Shown here: in pieces, positions 49,669 to 64,000 of the stretch
Layout: each line of letters begins with the position of its first letter
Position numbering within the stretch: the stretch's first letter is position 1
From: Massalongia carnosa
Taxonomy: Eukaryota
Length of the DNA stretch: 64,000 nucleotides
Direction of reading: 5' to 3'
NCBI GenBank assembly: GCA_965645245.1
Contig: OZ287079.1
Span: forward strand, 1,674,001-1,738,000
Position numbers and translations under genes: made by a program
The notes under the pieces: generated by a model
The model's database searches: none
What the model was told of the DNA's origin: nothing
What the model saw: the letters and a program-made list of their open reading frames with translations, nothing else

Positions 49669-52600
49669 TGTTAGAGTGACTCTGGACTAGGAGTAGCGTA
49701 GTGGGTTAAGAGTAGAACAATTTAGTACGGAGTAGTTAAATTGTAAGATGATCTATCTAGGTGGGCCTAACACCATATTATATAGATCAGTAGGAATAGT
49801 CGAGGTCGAGTTTCTTCAGTACTCTGCCAACTATGCCAACTAAGGGCGGACGTTCCTCCGTGGGCTCAGACCTTCTGTCCCGTCCCATTAGTCATCGCTT
49901 GACCTGACTATAGTATGACTGTGTTCAGCACCGCTGAGTCATCAGGCTTAGTAATAATCAGCCTTATACGGCGGCTGCTCATCCACGATATAGGCCCTCC
50001 CCCTAGCATGTACACGTATCCCAAGATCGATTTTCTTTCGAGCCTATCAGCTGCGTAGTCTGAATCGGAATACCCAATGAGGCCTTGGCATGATTCCCCC
50101 CAGCCCCATACAGTATACCGATGTCAAGGGTGGACCGAACGTATCTAAGCAGCGTCTTTAGTGCATGACCGTGATGAGCAGCTGGATCACTGAGATATTG
50201 GCTCAGCCTTCCAAGAGCAAAAGCTATATCTGGCCGCGTATGAATTGCCGCGTACATCAGGCTTCCAACAATTTGCTGATATTCTCTTTGATCTATGCGC
50301 TTATCATCTTTTCCAGCCGGTCGCAATGAATCATAGCCGTTCATTGGAATTTCGGTAGGCCTATGTTTGTCAGCGCTCATATGTGTTCTCTCCATCACAT
50401 CTTTGAGATAATGCGTCTGGTCCATTCGAAGAGTTCGATTTTTCCGATCTCTGGTTACTCGTATGCCCAGAACCTTCGACACTTCTCCTAGATCCTTGAT
50501 GCTAACGGCAGCATTGAACTCTTTCTTGAACCAATTAATCTCTTTCGTCATTTTGGAGGCGATCACTAGGTCATCTACGTGCATGAATATAATGATTCCC
50601 TTTTTAGGATGAGTGAATAGGCATGGGTCAGATGAGCATTGAATGAAGCCTAGTTTGGTCAGCTCATTTGTACAGCGGCTATTCCATTCTCTGGCGGACT
50701 GCTTTAAACCGTATAGACTTTGCAGAATCTGAAGAACTCTACCAGGGGCAACGTTTACTCCTTCTGATGCGGTCATGTAAATGACATCTTTCAAGGTTGA
50801 TTGGGTAAATGCGTTATTCACGTCCACTTGATGACATTCCAGGTTTTCCATCGCTACTATGGCAAGCACTGCACGTAGGGTATCCGATCTTACCGTGGGG
50901 GCGAAAGTGTCCTCATAGTCGATGCCGTATTTTTGAGTAAACCCACGGGCGACTAATCTTGCTTTGAACTTCTCCAATGAACCATCGAGGTTGGTTTTTA
51001 CTTTAAACACCCATTTGCAGGTGACGATGTTCGTTTTGTGAGGTGGAACAACTTCTTTCCAAGTCTTATTACCGATGAGCGCCTTGATCTCGGTGTTCAC
51101 TGCTTCTTTCCATAGTTCCCCCCACACCGGATCATTTACTGCTTCCTTGTAAGACTTAGGCTCGGGTATGTTTCTTTCAAATGCAGAAGCACCAGCCGAT
51201 AGGGCAGATTCGAATTTGAGATAGCCATCTTCATCCTCGTTATTATCGTCGGCGAACAGCGCTAGAAAAGTGCGCGGTATTTTGAAAGCCGGTTCTTCGG
51301 GAACTGAGTCTTCATCAGATCGCTTTCGCTTCGGGATTGCAACATGAGAGAATATGCTAGTGCTAGCCTTAGGCACAGCTCCGGCTGGGATTGAATCATT
51401 CGCTATGGGCGACTCTTCGGAAGTTGGGATTGGTGGTACGTTTTGAGTGACATCATCTTTCGGGTTTGGTTGGTCATGAGTTTGATTCTGTTGACTAGGA
51501 ACCTCCACATGCGAAAATCTTTCTACTAATTTGGCGGGTTCGCTGATTTTCGTTTCTTTTGTCTTTTGTGGTCTTCCTACTGGCCGTCTTTCTGGTAGCA
51601 CGTTGGGTGTCTGCTTCCGCAAGTTTAAATCAACGCTGTCACCTTTTAAATTTTCATCAAATTTTACGACATGGCTTCTGCTGATTTTTCCCATGTCGGG
51701 TGCCCAGAGACGATACTGTTTAGTTGTCTCTTCTACATATCCCATAAAGACTCCGATTCTGCCTCTGTCCATGAACTTGTCTCTTCTGTCCCCCGCGGGT
51801 AGCGATTTGGGATCGACGTACGAATAGCATTTGCATCCCCATACCCTAATATGATCAATGGATGGCTTGACGCCCGTGAAGGCTTCTCCCGGTGTGCTAG
51901 GATAGCCGTTGATGATCGGTCCGCATCCCGTGCGATTCCGAAGATATGCATCAGTTTCCATGGCTTCCTTCCAGAATTCGATTGGGAGTTCTGCGTCCTT
52001 TATCATGGCTCGCACCGAGTTCTCGGTGGTACGAATTGCTCGCTCGGCGACTCCGTTCTGAATAGACATATGAGGAATGGTGTATTGCGGAATAATACCG
52101 ATTGAGGAGCACCATTCATCAAGAGTAGCCTTCAGCTCGGTGGCATTGTCACTCCGTACAGCCAATAGTCTTTGTGCACTTTGTAATTCGACTTTTATTC
52201 TCCATTTTCGCAATTCACCTGGTGCTTCGTCTCGCCTTTTGAGTGGAATGGACCATATCTTTCTAGAATAGTTGTCCACAATTTCCAAAAAGTATATGTA
52301 TCCTTCTCGAGAGGCAGGCAAAGGACCGCAAATATCGATGGAGACCAGAGCCAGAAGAGAGGTTTTTCGCTCGGTCGCTTTGCCTCTTTTATTGGTGAGC
52401 TTAGTGAGCGCGCATACCTCGCAAATGTGATCCTCTTCTTTGCTGACCGGAATAGGCTTTTCTAGGGTGGTGACCTTATGCAGATTACGAAGCTTTTCTC
52501 GGCCTAGGTGAGCAAATCTTCGATGCCATAGCCTGTACGTTTCAGAGTGTTTGTCCGTCTTGGTTGGGTTAAGTGCGGGTGTTGACTCAATCTCGATTTC

Positions 52601-54713
52601 CATATTGTTATGTATTTTTGGACATGTTAAACCCGCGCCGCGCGGCTTTAACGCCTCTGATGAAGACGAGAGTGATGCAATATCAACTTTGCTTGGAAAG
52701 GCAATGTCATGATGCATGGACGCGGTTAATGCGAATTGATCGAGATCCTTTGCTATTTTCTCGACGATATATACTCCCCCTCGCTGCCGTGCCTCCATGA
52801 TCTCCTTGCCTTGCTTGTCATGCATCTTCAGCCCGTGCTGGTCGAAACTTCCGATGAGGCCCTTCTCGCACATCCGCCTTCCAGACAAGAGATTAACCCC
52901 TAGCTTGGGGACATAAAGGACAGAAGAAAGAAATCCCTGATTTCCGTGCCCATCCTTGATCACGCACGTACCGCGATGACATGCTCTCAATTCTCCCCCG
53001 CCGACCTTTATTCTTCTTTCTCTGATCTTTGTCAGAGGTCCGCTAAAGAGCTGAAGCTTGTCAGTCATGTGGGATGATGCGCCAGAGTCAGCTACCCATT
53101 TTGATCTGGGAATCTTACAGACAGCTTCTCTGGAGAGAGCCGCAGTTTCCTCGAGATCATCTAGATCATCGTCATTGTCGCCTGATGAGAAGCTATCGTT
53201 CTCGTCCTCTTCTTCTGACTCGCCAGCGAGATAGCTCCGATGGCGCTTGACGGATGATTTGCCCTTATTGACCTCTTCCTTCTTCTTCGCGAGGCTCCTG
53301 ACGTGGCTGCGAGTGCTTTCCAAGAATTCGCACTCTTTGGTCCAGTGGCCGACTTCTCCACAGATTAAGCATCCCTTTTGCGAGTTGACCTTGATTTTCG
53401 TTTCTCTCTTTGCACTTGAGGACCTTTCGTGCCGTCTGGATCGCTCCTGCCTGGAGTTGTTGAATGTGCTTCGACTTCTGGATGGGTTGAGAGGCCGTCG
53501 CTGCTCTCTTCGCTGTTCTTTCTGCTTTGCGAGCAAGGCTAAATCTGCTTTCGCCTGTGTTAGCTGCATTTCTTTGTCTTCCAACCTTTTTATGCCAATT
53601 TCGGCATCTACTCCCCCAATTGCATCAATTCCGTCCCTAATGACCGCGTACTCGGCTGGGAGAGATTGTAAGAGTAATTGGAATAGTTGCCGAGTGGGAA
53701 ATGCGTCTCGAAGTGTGGGTGTGGCCACGACGACCTTGTCTCTCAACAACAAAAGTTCCCCCCATGCCTCCTGAACGGTGGTGTTCTCTTTCATTTTATA
53801 TGACACCAGCTCTTGAAGGTAATGCCTTCCTGAAGTGGGAAGGATGTTGTTGTACTTGCTTAACAGCGAGGTCCACTTTTCCGCCGCTGTCTTCATCACT
53901 CTTACGCGTTCTTGATCGAATTGGCTTAAGCAGATGGTTATAAGATAGCATGCTTTAGCGTTGTCCTTTCTCCATCTTTCCGAATCGATGAATGGGGTTC
54001 CCGGGTGAGGGGTGTGTCTGATTTATCTATTTCCTTTCCATCAAGGCTTAATTTGTCCATTCGCTGCTGAAGGTACGAGGAATTGGGCTGTGGCTCGCTT
54101 ATTGTATGAAAGATGCCTTCCGCTTCGAAATGCATTTCGGCCAGCTCGAAGCATCTTTGATAGTTCTCCCTTGTCAGAACGGGCAAGGGTCTTCTTTTCG
54201 CTAGATCGTCTGCGATTGTTGTCATTTTTGATATTTGATTGTGCTTGTTGGATCCGTCGTATCAAGCTGCCGGGAGTGCTGGTTTGTCCTGCCACAGGAA
54301 TCGTAAGGAGCTGCCGAGGTGCTGGTTTATCCTACCATAGGAATCGTAAGGAGCTGCCGAGGTGCTGGTTTATCCTACCATAGGAATCGTAAGGAGCTGC
54401 CGAGGTGCTGATTCTTCCTACCTAAAGGAATCGTAGTCGAGCTGCCGAGATAGCGATTTGCGAAGAGCTATATCCTTTTCTGATGTTCGGAAGCTTGTTG
54501 CTGACCGTGCTCATACCAGTTAAAAGGAGACTCTGGTTGCAGGTGATCGCATTGACTATGAAGCTATCTAAAAGGAAAAGAGCAGACTTTTCACCAAAGG
54601 GCAAAGCACGCTAAACCTAAAACCTTCCTAGAGAAGATTAGACTACCCGCTATCCACGTTATGAGGCAGTGAGCCCAAGCCATTATAACCATAATCGCAA
54701 CCGCCATTCAACA
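49669..54713 (-). mobile_element. Ty1/Copia element with frameshifted gag, truncated RNase H and non-matching LTR-like ends
   Basis: ORFs 54225-53938 and 53899-50003 (CLICGEVGHWTKEC, WVADSGASSH, VRSDN, HVDD). RNase H stops after GGPISWMS (~49975). Candidate 5' LTR 54519-54713 is followed by TGGTATGAGC. LTR-like DNA at 49669-49975. Confidence 0.88.
54256..54450. repeat. 43-bp tandem repeat (~4.5 copies) in the Copia 5' leader
   Basis: AGGAATCGTAAGGAGCTGCCGAGGTGCTGGTTTATCCTACCAT units at 54296, 54339, 54382 and 54426 (partial). Confidence 0.9.
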
Positions 54714-55720: not shown

Positions 55721-56266
55721 TTTAACAGTACGTTTGCTATTTATCTTATATTGCTTTGCTGCAACGGGGGATTTGTCTGAAACACTCGGAATTTCTTCTT
55801 CATTCAGTCCATGACGCTGAATAAAATATAATATAATGTTTGAAGCAATTGATGGTAGGGAGATTTATTTTCTAATGATAATAATGGTGATGTTTTGAGG
55901 TAGAACGTAAACAAATTTTGATGTTCTTGCTTACTAACACTATGCGACTAACAGCTAGTGCGGGAGAGAACTGATGCGTATGCGAGATAATTGTAGTACC
56001 TGCATGGAGAGACCAGGCGCTTGAGCACGTGCATAGCCTTGGCTCTATCAGCCTGTCATCTATCCCGCCGTGCCCGCATGATGGGCCTTCCATCGGCGAG
56101 TCCGTGCCTATATTTTTTTATATAGATGAATCGTGCTTTTGGAAAGTCTTGGGCGACGAGTTTCTGACCGAGCCTAGGTGCGGTCCTGAGGACGGTAAAG
56201 ATAGGGGGTTTCAGTCTTATTCAATACAGCCCTGAGCTCTAATGTCTACAATCTTCCGACGCAGGA

Positions 56267-59200
56267 ATGCCCGGTAACACGCTAGCAGTCTCTACAGGCG
56301 CGAAGGATTTTGGCACGATTTCTGGCAACCAAGGCGCTGTGATCGGTGACGTCTCAGGCTATGCGAAAGTGATTGGTTTGCGTCCTGTTCACATCGATAT
56401 TGATCTTATGCTAAATCCTGATTAGGCTCTCAGACAAACAATATTGTTCAATATCCAGGCAAGTCGCCATTCGCAATGATATAGCGTCCTGTGAGCCAAG
56501 GCTGATAGCATTCTGCGTTTGTAGAAAGACCCGATACCCCACCAAGCCCATCATCTGCTGTTCCTTTCCGCCGCGACCCTGATTTCGTCGATCGCGGAAC
56601 GCTACTTGATCAGATCCACGAAAAGTGCTCCGCGCCAGCATCAAGAGTAGTGCTTGTCGGCCTAGGCGGCGTTGGGTAAGCCAAAGGGCCTCAGGCTAGT
56701 TCTAATAGCTTACTTTCGCAAAGAAAGTCGCAGCTTGCCATCGAGTACTGCTATCGAATCAGAGAGCAGTTGCCGACGACGTGGGTGTTCTGGATACACG
56801 CTAGTAATGCAGCCCGTATCGAGCAAGGTTATCGGGATGTTGCAGAGCAAGTCAAGATTCCTGGCAGGGAGGACCCAAAGGCGGACATATTCCGGCTAGT
56901 TGACAAGTGGTTACGCGACGAGAAGAACGGAAAGTGGGCTCTGGTCCTCGACAATGCCGACGAAGCTACTGTACTTTTCGAAACTCATGCTACAGGCCAG
57001 AAGGCGCAGGATGGCGGCATTAGAAGCGGGCTCACGCAATCACTGTTAGCATATCTACCTCAGAGTCGAAACGGCTCGATTCTCATCACCTCCCGGACTA
57101 AAAGCGTGGCATTGCGGCTAGCAGAAGAAAGCGACATAATACCGGTTGAGCCGATGGACGATACACATGCGCTAGCGCTCCTTGAAAAGAAGCTGGGAGA
57201 ACAGATGGACAGAGATGATACTGCTGAGCTAGCAGCAGCACTCGAATTCATGCCGCTTGCCATCGTTCAAGCGGCCGCATACATTCGACAAAGAGTACCA
57301 AGATATTCTGTTCGACAGTACATAAAAGAGTTCTATAAAAATGATAAAAGAAAGACCAGTCTGTTGAATCACGAAGCGGGACATCTTCGCAGGGACTTGG
57401 AGGCTAAAAATTCAATCATTATAACCTGGCAAATATCGTTTGATCATATTCATCAGATCAAGCCTTCGGCAGCTAATCTGCTGTCGCTTATGAGCTTTTT
57501 CGATCGACAGGGAATTCCTGAGGCTTTACTCAAGACACAAAACGATGCAGGAAATGAAAATACGGGAGAAAATGCTGGAAATGACGAAGATGATGACCAC
57601 GAAGACGATAGCGATAAGGATACCGTATCCGATTCCAGCGTAGACGAGTTCGAAGCCGACATACTTGTCTTGAGAAACTTCTCGTTCATCACCATCAGCA
57701 TGGATGAAACCACCTTTGAGATGCACGGGCTAGTGCAGCTAGCGATCAGAAAGTGGCTAGAAGCATCCAATCAGCTCGAAAGATGGAAGCAGCAATACAT
57801 CAAGAATCTCTGTACAGTATTTCCAACGGGAAATTACGAGAATTGGACAAAGTGTCAAGCGCTTTTTCCTCACGCAAAGTCGGCAGTAGCGCAGGAGCCA
57901 GCTGTCGAAAGCTCATTACAAGATTGGGCCTTGATACTATATCACGCTGCATGGTATGCGTGGGCGAAAGGGAGTTACGCTGAAGCAGCGACAATGGCCC
58001 TAAAAGCAACAAGAACCAGACAAAAAGTGCTTGGTCCAGAGGATGATGAGACATTGAATAGTATGACTATGCTAGCCTTGGCATACAAGGGACAAGGACG
58101 ATGGACGAAGGCCGAAGAGCTGGAGGTGCAAGTAATGACGACGAAAAAGAGGGTGCTAGGGGCGGAGCATCCTTCCACGCTGACTAGCATGGCCAATCTT
58201 GCGTCGACGTATTGGAATCAAGGACGATGGACGGAGGCCGAAGAGCTGGAGGTGCAAGTGATGGAGACGATAAAGAGGGTGCTAGGGGCGGAGCATCCTT
58301 CCACGCTGACTAGCATGGCCAATCTTGCGTCGACGTACAGGAATCAAGGACGATGGATGGAGGCCGAAGAGCTGGAGGTGCAAGTGATGGAGACGAGTGC
58401 GAGGGTGCTAGGGGCGGAGCATCCAGACACGCTGACTAGCATGGCCAATCTTGCGTCGACGTACAGGAATCAAGGACGATGGACGGAGGCCGAAGAGCTG
58501 GAGGTGCAAGTGATGGAGACGAGTGCGAGGGTGCTAGGGGCGGAGCATCCTTCCACGCTGACTAGCATGGCCAATCTTGCGTCGACGTATTGGAATCAAG
58601 GACGATGGACGGAGGCCGAAGAGCTGGAGGTGCAAGTTATGGAGACGATAAAGAGGGTGCTAGGGGCGGAGCATCCAGACACGCTGACTAGCATGGCCAA
58701 TCTTGCGTCGACGTACAGGAATCAAGGACGATGGACGGAGGCCGAAGAGCTGGAGGTGCAAGTGATGGAGACGAGTGCGAGGGTGCTAGGGGCGGAGCAT
58801 CCTTCCACGCTGACTAGCATGGCCAATCTTGCGTCGACGTATTCGAATCAAGGACGATGGACGGAGGCCGAAGAGCTGGAGGTGCAAGTGATGGAGACGA
58901 GTGCGAGGGTGCTAGGGGCGGAGCATCCTTCCACGCTGACTAGTATGGCCAATCTTGCGTCGACGTACAGGAATCAAGGACGATGGACGGAGGCCGAAGA
59001 GCTGGAGGTGCAAGTGATGGAGACGAGTGCGAGGGTGCTAGGGGCGGAGCATCCTTCCGCGCTGACTAGCATGGCCAATCTTGCGTCGACGTACAGGAAT
59101 CAAGGACGATGGACGGAGGCCGAAGAGCTGGAGGTGCAAGTGATGGAGACGAGTGCGAGGGTGCTAGGGGCGGAGCATCCTTCCACGCTGACTAGCATGG

Positions 59201-59877
59201 CCAATCTTGCGTCGACGTATTCGAATCAAGGACGATGGACGGAGGCCGAAGAGCTGGAGGTGCAAGTGATGGAGACGAGTGCGAGGGTGCTAGGGGCGGA
59301 GCATCCTTCCACGCTGACTAGTATGGCCAATCTTGCGTCGACGTACAGGAATCAAGGACGATGGACGGAGGCCGAAGAGCTGGAGGTGCAAGTGATGGAG
59401 ACGATGAAGAGAGTGCTAGGGGCGGAGCATCCTTCCACGCTGACTAGCATAGCCAATCTTGCGTCGACGTACAGGAACCAAGGACGATGGACGGAGGCCG
59501 AAGAGCTGGAGGTGCAAGTTATGGAGACGATAAAGAGGGTGCTAGGGGCGGAGCATCCTTCCACGCTGACTAGCATGGCCAATCTTGCGTCGACGTATTG
59601 GAATCAAGGAAGATGGACGGAGGCCGAAGAGCTGGAGGTGCAAGTGATGGAGACGATAAAGAGGGTGCTAGGGGCGGAGCATCCTTCCACGCTGACTAGC
59701 ATGAGCAACCTTGCATTCACGTGGAAGTCTCAAGGCCGCAATGATAAGGCTCTCTCACTGCTAAAGGAATGTTTTCAGCTACGAAGACACAAATTGGGTC
59801 CTCAACATCCTGATACAGAGTCTTCGCTTGAGGTTCTGAATGAGTGGCAGATGGAGAGTTTATCATCGGAGTCTTAA
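56267..59877 (+). CDS. Fungal NLR: short N-terminal motif, NB-ARC, TPR array (~1148 aa, 4 coding exons)
   Basis: Exons 56267-56375, 56426-56458, 56525-56675 and 56724-59877 splice in frame. VPFRRDPDFVDR, Walker A GLGGVGKS (split by an intron), Walker B LVLDNAD, ILITSR, MPLAI (GLPL-like), MHGLVQ (MHD-like). The first two exons are less certain than the rest. Confidence 0.9.
58093..59705 (+). repeat. 126-bp (42-aa) near-identical TPR tandem array, ~13 units
   Basis: 12 STYxNQGRW units plus divergent cap repeats. Confidence 0.97.
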
Positions 59878-63103: not shown

Positions 63104-64000
63104 CTAGAATGAATGCTTCGCAAATGCATTTTCAACTGTGTCATAAACATCGTACGAAAAGATCCATGACTGAATTTTGGGATGTGTCCTACAAATATTA
63201 GGGCACTTTACTGTTACAAAAGTCACCATCGCTTACCAGCATTCCTTTCCGGGAGTATCAGGAACATATGGTTCGAAAGATTCTGCAAGGCGCAAGTCTC
63301 GCGCCACCTGCTCCTCGCCGTCTGGAAGATGATGTTCATGGCCCTGAAGAAACGTTTCTCGAACTAGTTGATCGAGCCGCGGACGTCGGATAGTATCATA
63401 TAGATCCATGGCGTTAGGTATCTGCTTTGTGGATGAAACATGGGAGAGCAGTGCGCCAAGGGTTGCACCGTCTTCGAGAGCGGAATTCGCACCCTGAGCC
63501 ATGTAAGGGAGCATCGCGTGACAGGAGTCGCCTCTGCGATGTCGACAATCAGTTCTTGAAACTTCATTCTATCCAATCTGTTGTAAGTCTGGGGGCTGCT
63601 TACGCCATAACGAAAGATCCCGATGAAGTTTTCCACGACTTTAGCGTAGGGAGGTGGTAAAGCCGCCACTTTTCGACCTTGTTCGTACATTTCAGGAAAC
63701 GAGTGAGTCTTACAGGCTAGTGAGCTCTATATTACATATCGACGTGATGCCACAACTCACATTGGGTCCCACCCTTCGAACAGTTGCATCATTTCGTCCA
63801 CGTTACCCTTGGCTTTTGCAGCATTTTCTGGCAAGTCATCCGGAACGAGTAGAACTAAATTGAGCAAACGTCCACCTTGAATGCCATATGCAACCGCATG
63901 AGCGCTAGGTCCTGCCCAAATATGAATCCCGACTTTCCGAATCCATGCTTTCAGCTCATCATCCTGAATATTTTCGGTGTCGAGCACTATTCTGTAGGCT
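63104..64000 (-). CDS. FAD-dependent monooxygenase (salicylate hydroxylase-like), 3' part
   Basis: W.GP..H.VAY, FEGWDP, KWRL and GDSCHAMLPYMAQGANSALEDG motifs; three GT-AG introns keep the frame to TAG at 63104; runs off the window. Confidence 0.9.

Follow-up and report, generated by a model that had tools for sequence, protein, structure and literature searches.

A candidate amyloid signalling motif on two micro-exons of an NB-ARC-TPR receptor, matching the tail of a SesB-like hydrolase

The stretch of DNA analysed here, called the window, covers 64 kb of a fungal genome of 52 Mb (G000:C13:1674001-1738000). It contains a receptor gene whose N-terminus probably serves as an amyloid signalling motif belonging to no catalogued family, and by analogy with studied systems this motif would act on the tail of a SesB-like lipase. 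The N-terminus is encoded on two very short exons, and a matching tail is found in a hydrolase gene which lies beside the receptor in sister loci of the same genome.

The receptor gene and its copies

The features of the window used in the following are:

50003..54022, minus strand: pol ORF of a retrotransposon, judged from the sequence to be in Copia-type order
55979..56266, no strand assigned: what is left of the intergenic stretch that the receptor has in common with the divergent hydrolase gene of sister loci
56195..56264, plus strand: probable 5'-UTR intron of 70 nt (GT-AG), with 2 nt between its end and the ATG
56267..56375, plus strand: exon 1, 109 nt, residues 1-36, with the bulk of the candidate amyloid signalling motif
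56267..56375, plus strand: within exon 1, core N-x-G-h-h-x-G (h = hydrophobic or small)
56376..56425, plus strand: intron 1, 50 nt, GT-AG, phase 1; position kept in metagenome contig L050
56426..56458, plus strand: micro-exon 2, 33 nt (30 nt in L050); the motif region ends here
56459..56524, plus strand: intron 2, 66 nt, GC-AG, phase 1; switch point to a NACHT-ankyrin gene at three other loci
56525..56675, plus strand: exon 3, coding for the linker and the first part of NB-ARC as far as the P-loop
56724..59877, plus strand: exon 4, NB-ARC, DUF7779 and TPR array

The model of four exons gives an NB-ARC-TPR protein of 1148 aa, in which an N-terminus of 47 residues is followed directly by ERPDTPP. 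According to this model the N-terminus is short, non-globular and placed immediately ahead of the nucleotide-binding domain. The first-pass annotation had described it as a spliced, G/N/Q/V/I-rich peptide separated from NB-ARC by phase-1 introns, and the exon model reproduces it: introns 1 and 2 are both in phase 1, exons 1 and 2 are open in all 34 genomic copies, and residues 7-47 contain 17% G, 15% N/Q, 22% V/I and 10% charged residues. The pseudo-repeat (ISGNQGAVIG / VSGYAKVIG) read in the same peptide did not stand, since its self-alignment score was reached by 118 of 500 shuffles and is not above chance. We regard the 47-residue N-terminus on two micro-exons as a gene model confirmed by sequence comparison. 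The proposed splicing of exons 1-3 is based on sequence conservation together with the protein records of relatives, and the records P0055, P0105, P0126 and P0210 run on past exon 2 likewise. In contigs from four runs whose type is not on record, the introns are read through and no splice joint appears, a result that bears neither way on expression. The AG at the end of the probable 5'-UTR intron is kept in 32 of the 34 copies and in L050. An out-of-frame ATG (56242-56277) overlapping the main start lies within this intron, and would be relevant only if the RNA is left unspliced.

The TPR array at 58093-59714 consists of 12.9 copies of a 126-nt unit with 94% matches, and the number of units differs widely between sister copies. 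Transposable elements had been reported upstream of the gene, and retrotransposon pol ORFs are indeed located there. A 43-nt tandem repeat of 4.2 copies (54265-54449) adjoins the ORF at 50003-54022, and at the other end of the window (63233-64000) pieces of a minus-strand ORF resemble, from a reading of the sequence, an FAD-dependent monooxygenase.

A DNA search of the genome gave 36 matches at 34 loci, and a search with exon 1 gave 34 matches. Exon 1 measures 109 nt in 33 copies, with one copy at 91 nt that stays in frame; exon 2 has 33 nt in every copy; the donor of intron 2 is GC in 33 copies and GT in one. The copies are 90-100% identical to one another. Of 31 NB-ARC-TPR copies, 24 are open through the last exon to a common end, with repeat-motif counts from 4 to 30, and 23 are counted as intact receptors, one of the 24 having an insertion in exon 3. 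Compared with L050, exon 1 has pS of 0.63 and pN of 0.26. Among paralogues the variants comprise 10 synonymous and 14 non-synonymous changes, a ratio of 0.45, which is a weak signal of selection.

At C13:39405-117396 and C12:1840000-1930000 (L027, L026, L031, L032, L057-L068) inverted pairs of receptor units, each of ~12 kb and with 98% identity, stand on either side of blocks of ~55 kb. Where the ends of these blocks were sampled, they are 99.5-99.7% identical between contigs C12 and C13, and a similar spacing is seen on C1, C7, C16 and C17. The ~55-kb block of C13 contains an apparently distinct hydrolase-NB-ARC gene that carries a short tandem array (C13:86311-88640, L060), together with NRPS-like remnants (97462-101585). 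In a clade of 12 copies a decayed tyrosine-recombinase-like coding remnant lies ~3 kb upstream (L031:400-1250). Carriage by a Starship element was considered and found no support: DUF3435 matches are many in the genome, and none is within ~50 kb of a motif locus.

Three loci, L047-L049, retain the promoter, exons 1-2 and 36 bases at the start of intron 2, after which a NACHT-ankyrin gene follows. This gene has 13 further copies, and the 10 of them which were fetched have a common, different 5' part. That alternative 5' part likewise stops at an intron of phase 1, within which the swap has its junction. The spliced chimeric model of L047 is in frame over the ~330 residues checked. Judged from these sequences, recombination within a phase-1 intron has placed the motif exons in front of a NACHT-ankyrin receptor at the three loci, so that the exon shuffling which the first-pass annotation had thought the phase-1 introns would allow is seen directly. 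The direction of the swap is drawn from the hybrid intron and the copy numbers, not from a tree. The alternative N-terminal domain gave sub-cut-off Pfam matches to NACHT_N (E 0.0012) and DUF7708, and we take it to be the domain named 'Goodbye-like'. With 13 copies (L070-L079, e.g. C10:56033-56688), NACHT-ankyrin genes having a NACHT_N-like N-terminus make up a second expanded receptor family, and several of these copies are close to contig ends.

The hydrolase partner and the shared motif

Most sister loci have common upstream DNA, and this DNA contains a gene for an alpha/beta-hydrolase of 350 aa, with five exons, which is transcribed divergently from the receptor. In this way the search that had been proposed, for a SesB-type protein ending in a similar motif, found its object head-to-head with the receptor. 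Ser118 of the hydrolase is retained in 39 of 41 homologues, Glu222 in 40 and His256 in 39; the Pfam match of the protein over the cut-off is DUF676, and two of the homologues are called SesB by their sources. A PDB sequence search gave a single weak esterase match (E 0.0013). We interpret the protein as a SesB-like alpha/beta-hydrolase with conserved nucleophile-elbow Ser, acid and His, a predicted enzyme. Its exon 4 codes for the tail which matches the receptor N-terminus. A Y-P ending that appeared common to both motifs was discarded, being due to intron read-through in the hydrolase; the fifth exon was seen via L050.

In the window copy, homology to most sister loci ends at 55979, just before the expected start codon of the hydrolase, and retrotransposon repeat DNA occupies the place of the gene. 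No hydrolase partner was found by tblastn within the 64-kb window. The statement that no cognate effector is adjacent is thus right for the window copy and wrong for the sister loci with their divergent hydrolase. No HeLo-like partner bearing the motif was found. Among 29 distinct hydrolase loci examined, three are intact (L038, L040, L051), and a further one, L053, is open with its last donor altered. An early frameshift is common to 12 hydrolase copies. Some of the breaks could be assembly errors, which the frameshift of the 12 copies can hardly be.

The start codons of hydrolase and receptor are 299-344 nt apart in all five pairs measured, a distance too short to hold an effector exon ahead of the receptor. 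Upstream of its start the window copy has no in-frame Met, and such a Met is present in just 6 of the 34 copies and in L050, unconserved. An upstream coding exon was accordingly rejected as an explanation of the short N-terminus, and the sequences speak against the splicing from an upstream effector-domain exon which the first-pass annotation had considered.

The likeness of the two termini was measured in several ways. A profile built from four NLR sequences only, when run against 41 full-length hydrolases, matched solely at C-terminal residues 296-339. The profile-profile match of receptor and hydrolase had a probability of 91% and an E-value of 1e-6 over 38 columns, with five members of the 41-hydrolase alignment having been found via motif search. 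The four-sequence NLR-only HMM gave 12.5 bits on the hydrolase tail of the same genome, and none of 1000 shuffles scored as high; in the reverse direction the hydrolase-only HMM gave 9.8 bits on the window peptide, a score reached by 2 of 1000 shuffles. Similarity of single pairs varied more, the numbers of shuffles out of 2000 reaching the score being 47 for the own pair, 24 for Lobaria, 8 for Dendryphion, 1 for A. nanangensis, and 0 for both L050 and Lindgomyces. Cognate motif pairs did not outscore non-cognate ones in a 6x6 matrix, a small sample of closely related motifs, and this matrix consequently does not support pairwise co-evolution. Charged residues make up 10% of the receptor-side motif and 20% of the effector side. 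The pattern N/K-x-G-h-h-x-G fits 16 of 16 receptor-side sequences, 11 of which were retrieved with the combined profile, and 23 of 42 hydrolase tails.

Pairs of this kind occur in other fungi as well. Lobaria immixta has an adjacent pair on one contig (MMC22_008330/008331), and another adjacent pair is present in Aspergillus nanangensis (KAF9893431/KAF9893432), the receptor of the latter being of NACHT-ankyrin type. Metagenome contig L050 carries a head-to-head pair separated by 284 nt, with the same 109-nt phase-1 exon. The motif partners are therewith adjacent in four genomes, this one and three others. In Lindgomyces and Dendryphion both partners are present, apparently on different contigs, and altogether the motif is kept in no fewer than five other fungi, named or located. 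The combined profile, searched over 1.84 billion representatives, gave 54 matches at E <= 0.001: 13 receptor-type by eye (9 by the strict pattern), 38 effector-type, and three long repeat proteins which were discarded as false. Twelve of the 13 receptor-type matches are short ORFs without context, which we infer to be linked to receptors; ten receptor-type matches, when aligned, agree as far as the intron position. The C-terminus of a PNP_UDP-type protein of A. ellipticus (PYH93623) is a motif tail of the hydrolase type. Next to a Pseudogymnoascus homologue of the hydrolase lies, according to the listed part of S1 Table of PMC9815663, a NACHT-ANK model which starts with its nucleotide-binding domain and to which no motif is assigned; this fits micro-exons hiding the family and does not prove it. 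A search seeded by words of the receptor motif recovered nothing beyond the three input proteins and one nearly identical ORF, a PDB sequence search with the motif gave no match, and ESM Atlas gave no usable match.

Relation to catalogued motifs and the proposed mechanism

To our knowledge, only five or six families of fungal amyloid signalling motifs have been catalogued. The first-pass annotation could not assign the N-terminus to any named class, and the tests that were scored, for PP, sigma, PUASM and HRAM, led to the same result. The full PP pattern NxGxQxGxN, the sigma sub-motifs GxGxQF and GGTQN, which stand in a three-fold arrangement in sigma, and the short HRAM pattern R/K-h-x-h-G (positions 15-19, as defined in the available text of PMC4518210) were found in 0 of 16 receptor-side and 0 of 42 effector-side sequences. 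The PUASM pattern FxGxGxQxxGxGxF is absent from the motif sequences, no receptor-side sequence has the BASS3 core G-h-Q-h-G, and the GDQN core GxGDQN, taken from the available text of PMC12261475, occurs in 0 of 51 motif-bearing matches. Pfam gave no match to Ses_B (PF17046) with exon 1 at E <= 10 or with four full-length relatives at E <= 1, and none to Ses_B, NACHT_sigma or HET-s on the motif or 24 tails, while two of two sigma sequences used as control matched NACHT_sigma at 61-65 bits.

The motif could instead work by the same mechanism as a divergent branch of a described family (PP/RHIM-like, PUASM2, NLR34, NLR40 or a BASS class), with cross-seeding. Its spacing is PP-like, F-G...N-x-G-h-V-h-G standing against F-G...N-x-G-h-Q-h-G, so that an aliphatic residue replaces the core Q, and the short core G-h-Q-h-G does appear in 3 of 42 hydrolase tails, as against 0 of 16 receptor-side sequences. 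These two features suggest that the motif either descended from the PP/RHIM core or converged on it. The nearest NB-ARC relatives carry mostly PP: among 120 matches listed, the N-terminus is on record in 64 close NB-ARC-TPR homologues, 33 of which have a PP-like motif in the very same position and three the present one. One PUASM2 example, in the available text, has by eye a loose V-V-x-G core. The PP HMM (20 homologous N-termini), however, gave only 3.1 bits on the window peptide against 40-56 bits for eight PP members in leave-one-out runs, and the Pfam searches were empty. Among the rows listed in S6 Table of PMC9815663, all 24 associated with hydrolases are sigma or PP, from which the present pairing differs, and among the 25 rows listed for NLR34 most are Fusarium NACHT proteins and Tuber. 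We regard such a branch as possible, though on balance improbable.

The motif family is probably undescribed, judged against the PP, sigma, PUASM, HRAM and GDQN patterns and the Pfam and PP profiles. Neither twelve effector accessions (S1 Table/S2 Data, 23 of 127 clusters) nor six 5-residue motif words (S2 Data) are among the rows listed in the supplements of PMC9815663, which counts as a weak negative. No description of the motif was found in searches of the literature outside subscription journals, nor in the available text of PMC5485727, PMC8086366, PMC13449251, PMC12881547 and bioRxiv 2020.01.06.895854. We give an even chance to the fuller proposal, that this is a separate motif family with an aliphatic residue at the place of the PP/RHIM core Q, one that extends across classes of ascomycetes and has escaped surveys because of its micro-exons, and which in this genome serves as a plug-in cassette, intronic recombination converting receptors, and by which more than 20 sensors with two nucleotide-binding types would converge on 3-4 lipases.

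In the mechanism we favour, ligand binding at the repeats would cause the receptor to oligomerise, the assembled N-termini would adopt an amyloid fold, and this amyloid would template the matching C-terminal motif of the SesB-like lipase, which once switched on may lead to cell death or defence. The receptor architecture, shared motif, gene adjacency, conserved Ser-Glu-His and exon swap are read from the sequences; amyloid folding, templating and enzyme activation are carried over from the HET-S/NWD2, PNT1/HELLP/SBP and HET-eN/SesA/SesB systems. The window copy, its own hydrolase lost, would act in trans on one of the 3-4 hydrolase genes still intact, and in that case many sensors with different repeat arrays share few executioners. 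The breakage of most hydrolase copies beside persisting NLRs is also compatible with a motif that has lost its role with this partner.

It is unlikely, in our estimate, that the motif is a non-amyloid module for binding or scaffolding, for example one exchanging a beta-strand between receptor and enzyme or only stabilising the NLR oligomer. The low pairwise identity of the partners and the many NLR copies without a linked intact hydrolase would suit such a module, and a scaffold role of partnerless motifs is discussed in the available text of PMC9815663; against it, the motif is terminal in both partners, the genes are neighbours in four genomes, and the composition is G/N/V/I-rich with low charge, all as in tested amyloid systems. 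Still less probable, and unlikely for the family as a whole, is that the N-terminus is a functionless relic of recent segmental duplication and the window copy an orphan with no output, for although the copies are nearly identical, some of them in large blocks 99.7% alike between contigs, and one early hydrolase frameshift is common to 12 of them, exons 1-2 have stayed open throughout beside decaying hydrolases, pN is well under pS against L050, and other fungi keep the motif.

If the amyloid reading is correct, a further family would supply ready peptide pairs of receptor and effector. Such pairs allow a test of whether the core glutamine is necessary for this type of amyloid, and a study of how SesB-like lipases get switched on. 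The genome also displays two things usually merely proposed: a change of receptor N-terminal output through phase-1 intron recombination, and the use of a few unlinked effectors by a large number of receptors. The micro-exon structure points to protein-based surveys overlooking families of this kind.

Comparison with known receptor and effector systems

The wiring of receptor and effector as two components is itself of a known kind. One close likeness is to PNT1/HELLP/SBP of Chaetomium globosum, in which, according to the available text of PMC7885112 and PMC3321046, an NB-ARC-TPR receptor with a short N-terminal motif is clustered with a SesB-type lipase ending in the receptor's motif. The spacing F-G...N-x-G-h-x-h-G of this PP system recurs here. 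The differences from PP are that the central Q and the pseudo-palindrome are lacking in 16 of 16 receptor-side motif sequences, and that the matched region covers ~38 columns as against 17-18. The sigma locus HET-eN/SesA/SesB of Nectria haematococca is similar in its SesB-like alpha/beta-hydrolase effector, in a motif of ~40 residues and in the presence of NACHT-ankyrin receptors, and its receptor-side motif was initially overlooked owing to an unnoticed 5' intron (PMC3321046, available text); GxGxQF/GGTQN are absent from the present motif, which has no match to PF17106. As in HRAM (HET-S/NWD2), there is a single receptor-side copy, less charged than the effector side, and as in the NLR12 variant of HRAM, with a reported mean of 5.7:1, receptors outnumber effectors. 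In contrast to HRAM, the effector has no double repeat and is a hydrolase instead of a HeLo protein. With PUASM and PUASM2 (PF01048_015, Wojciechowski et al. 2022), which the available text reports solely with PNP_UDP, the present motif shares a PNP_UDP-type carrier and, with the one PUASM2 example, the loose core noted above; that example is shorter and terminates in F-N-F, whereas the present motif ends in I-G-S.
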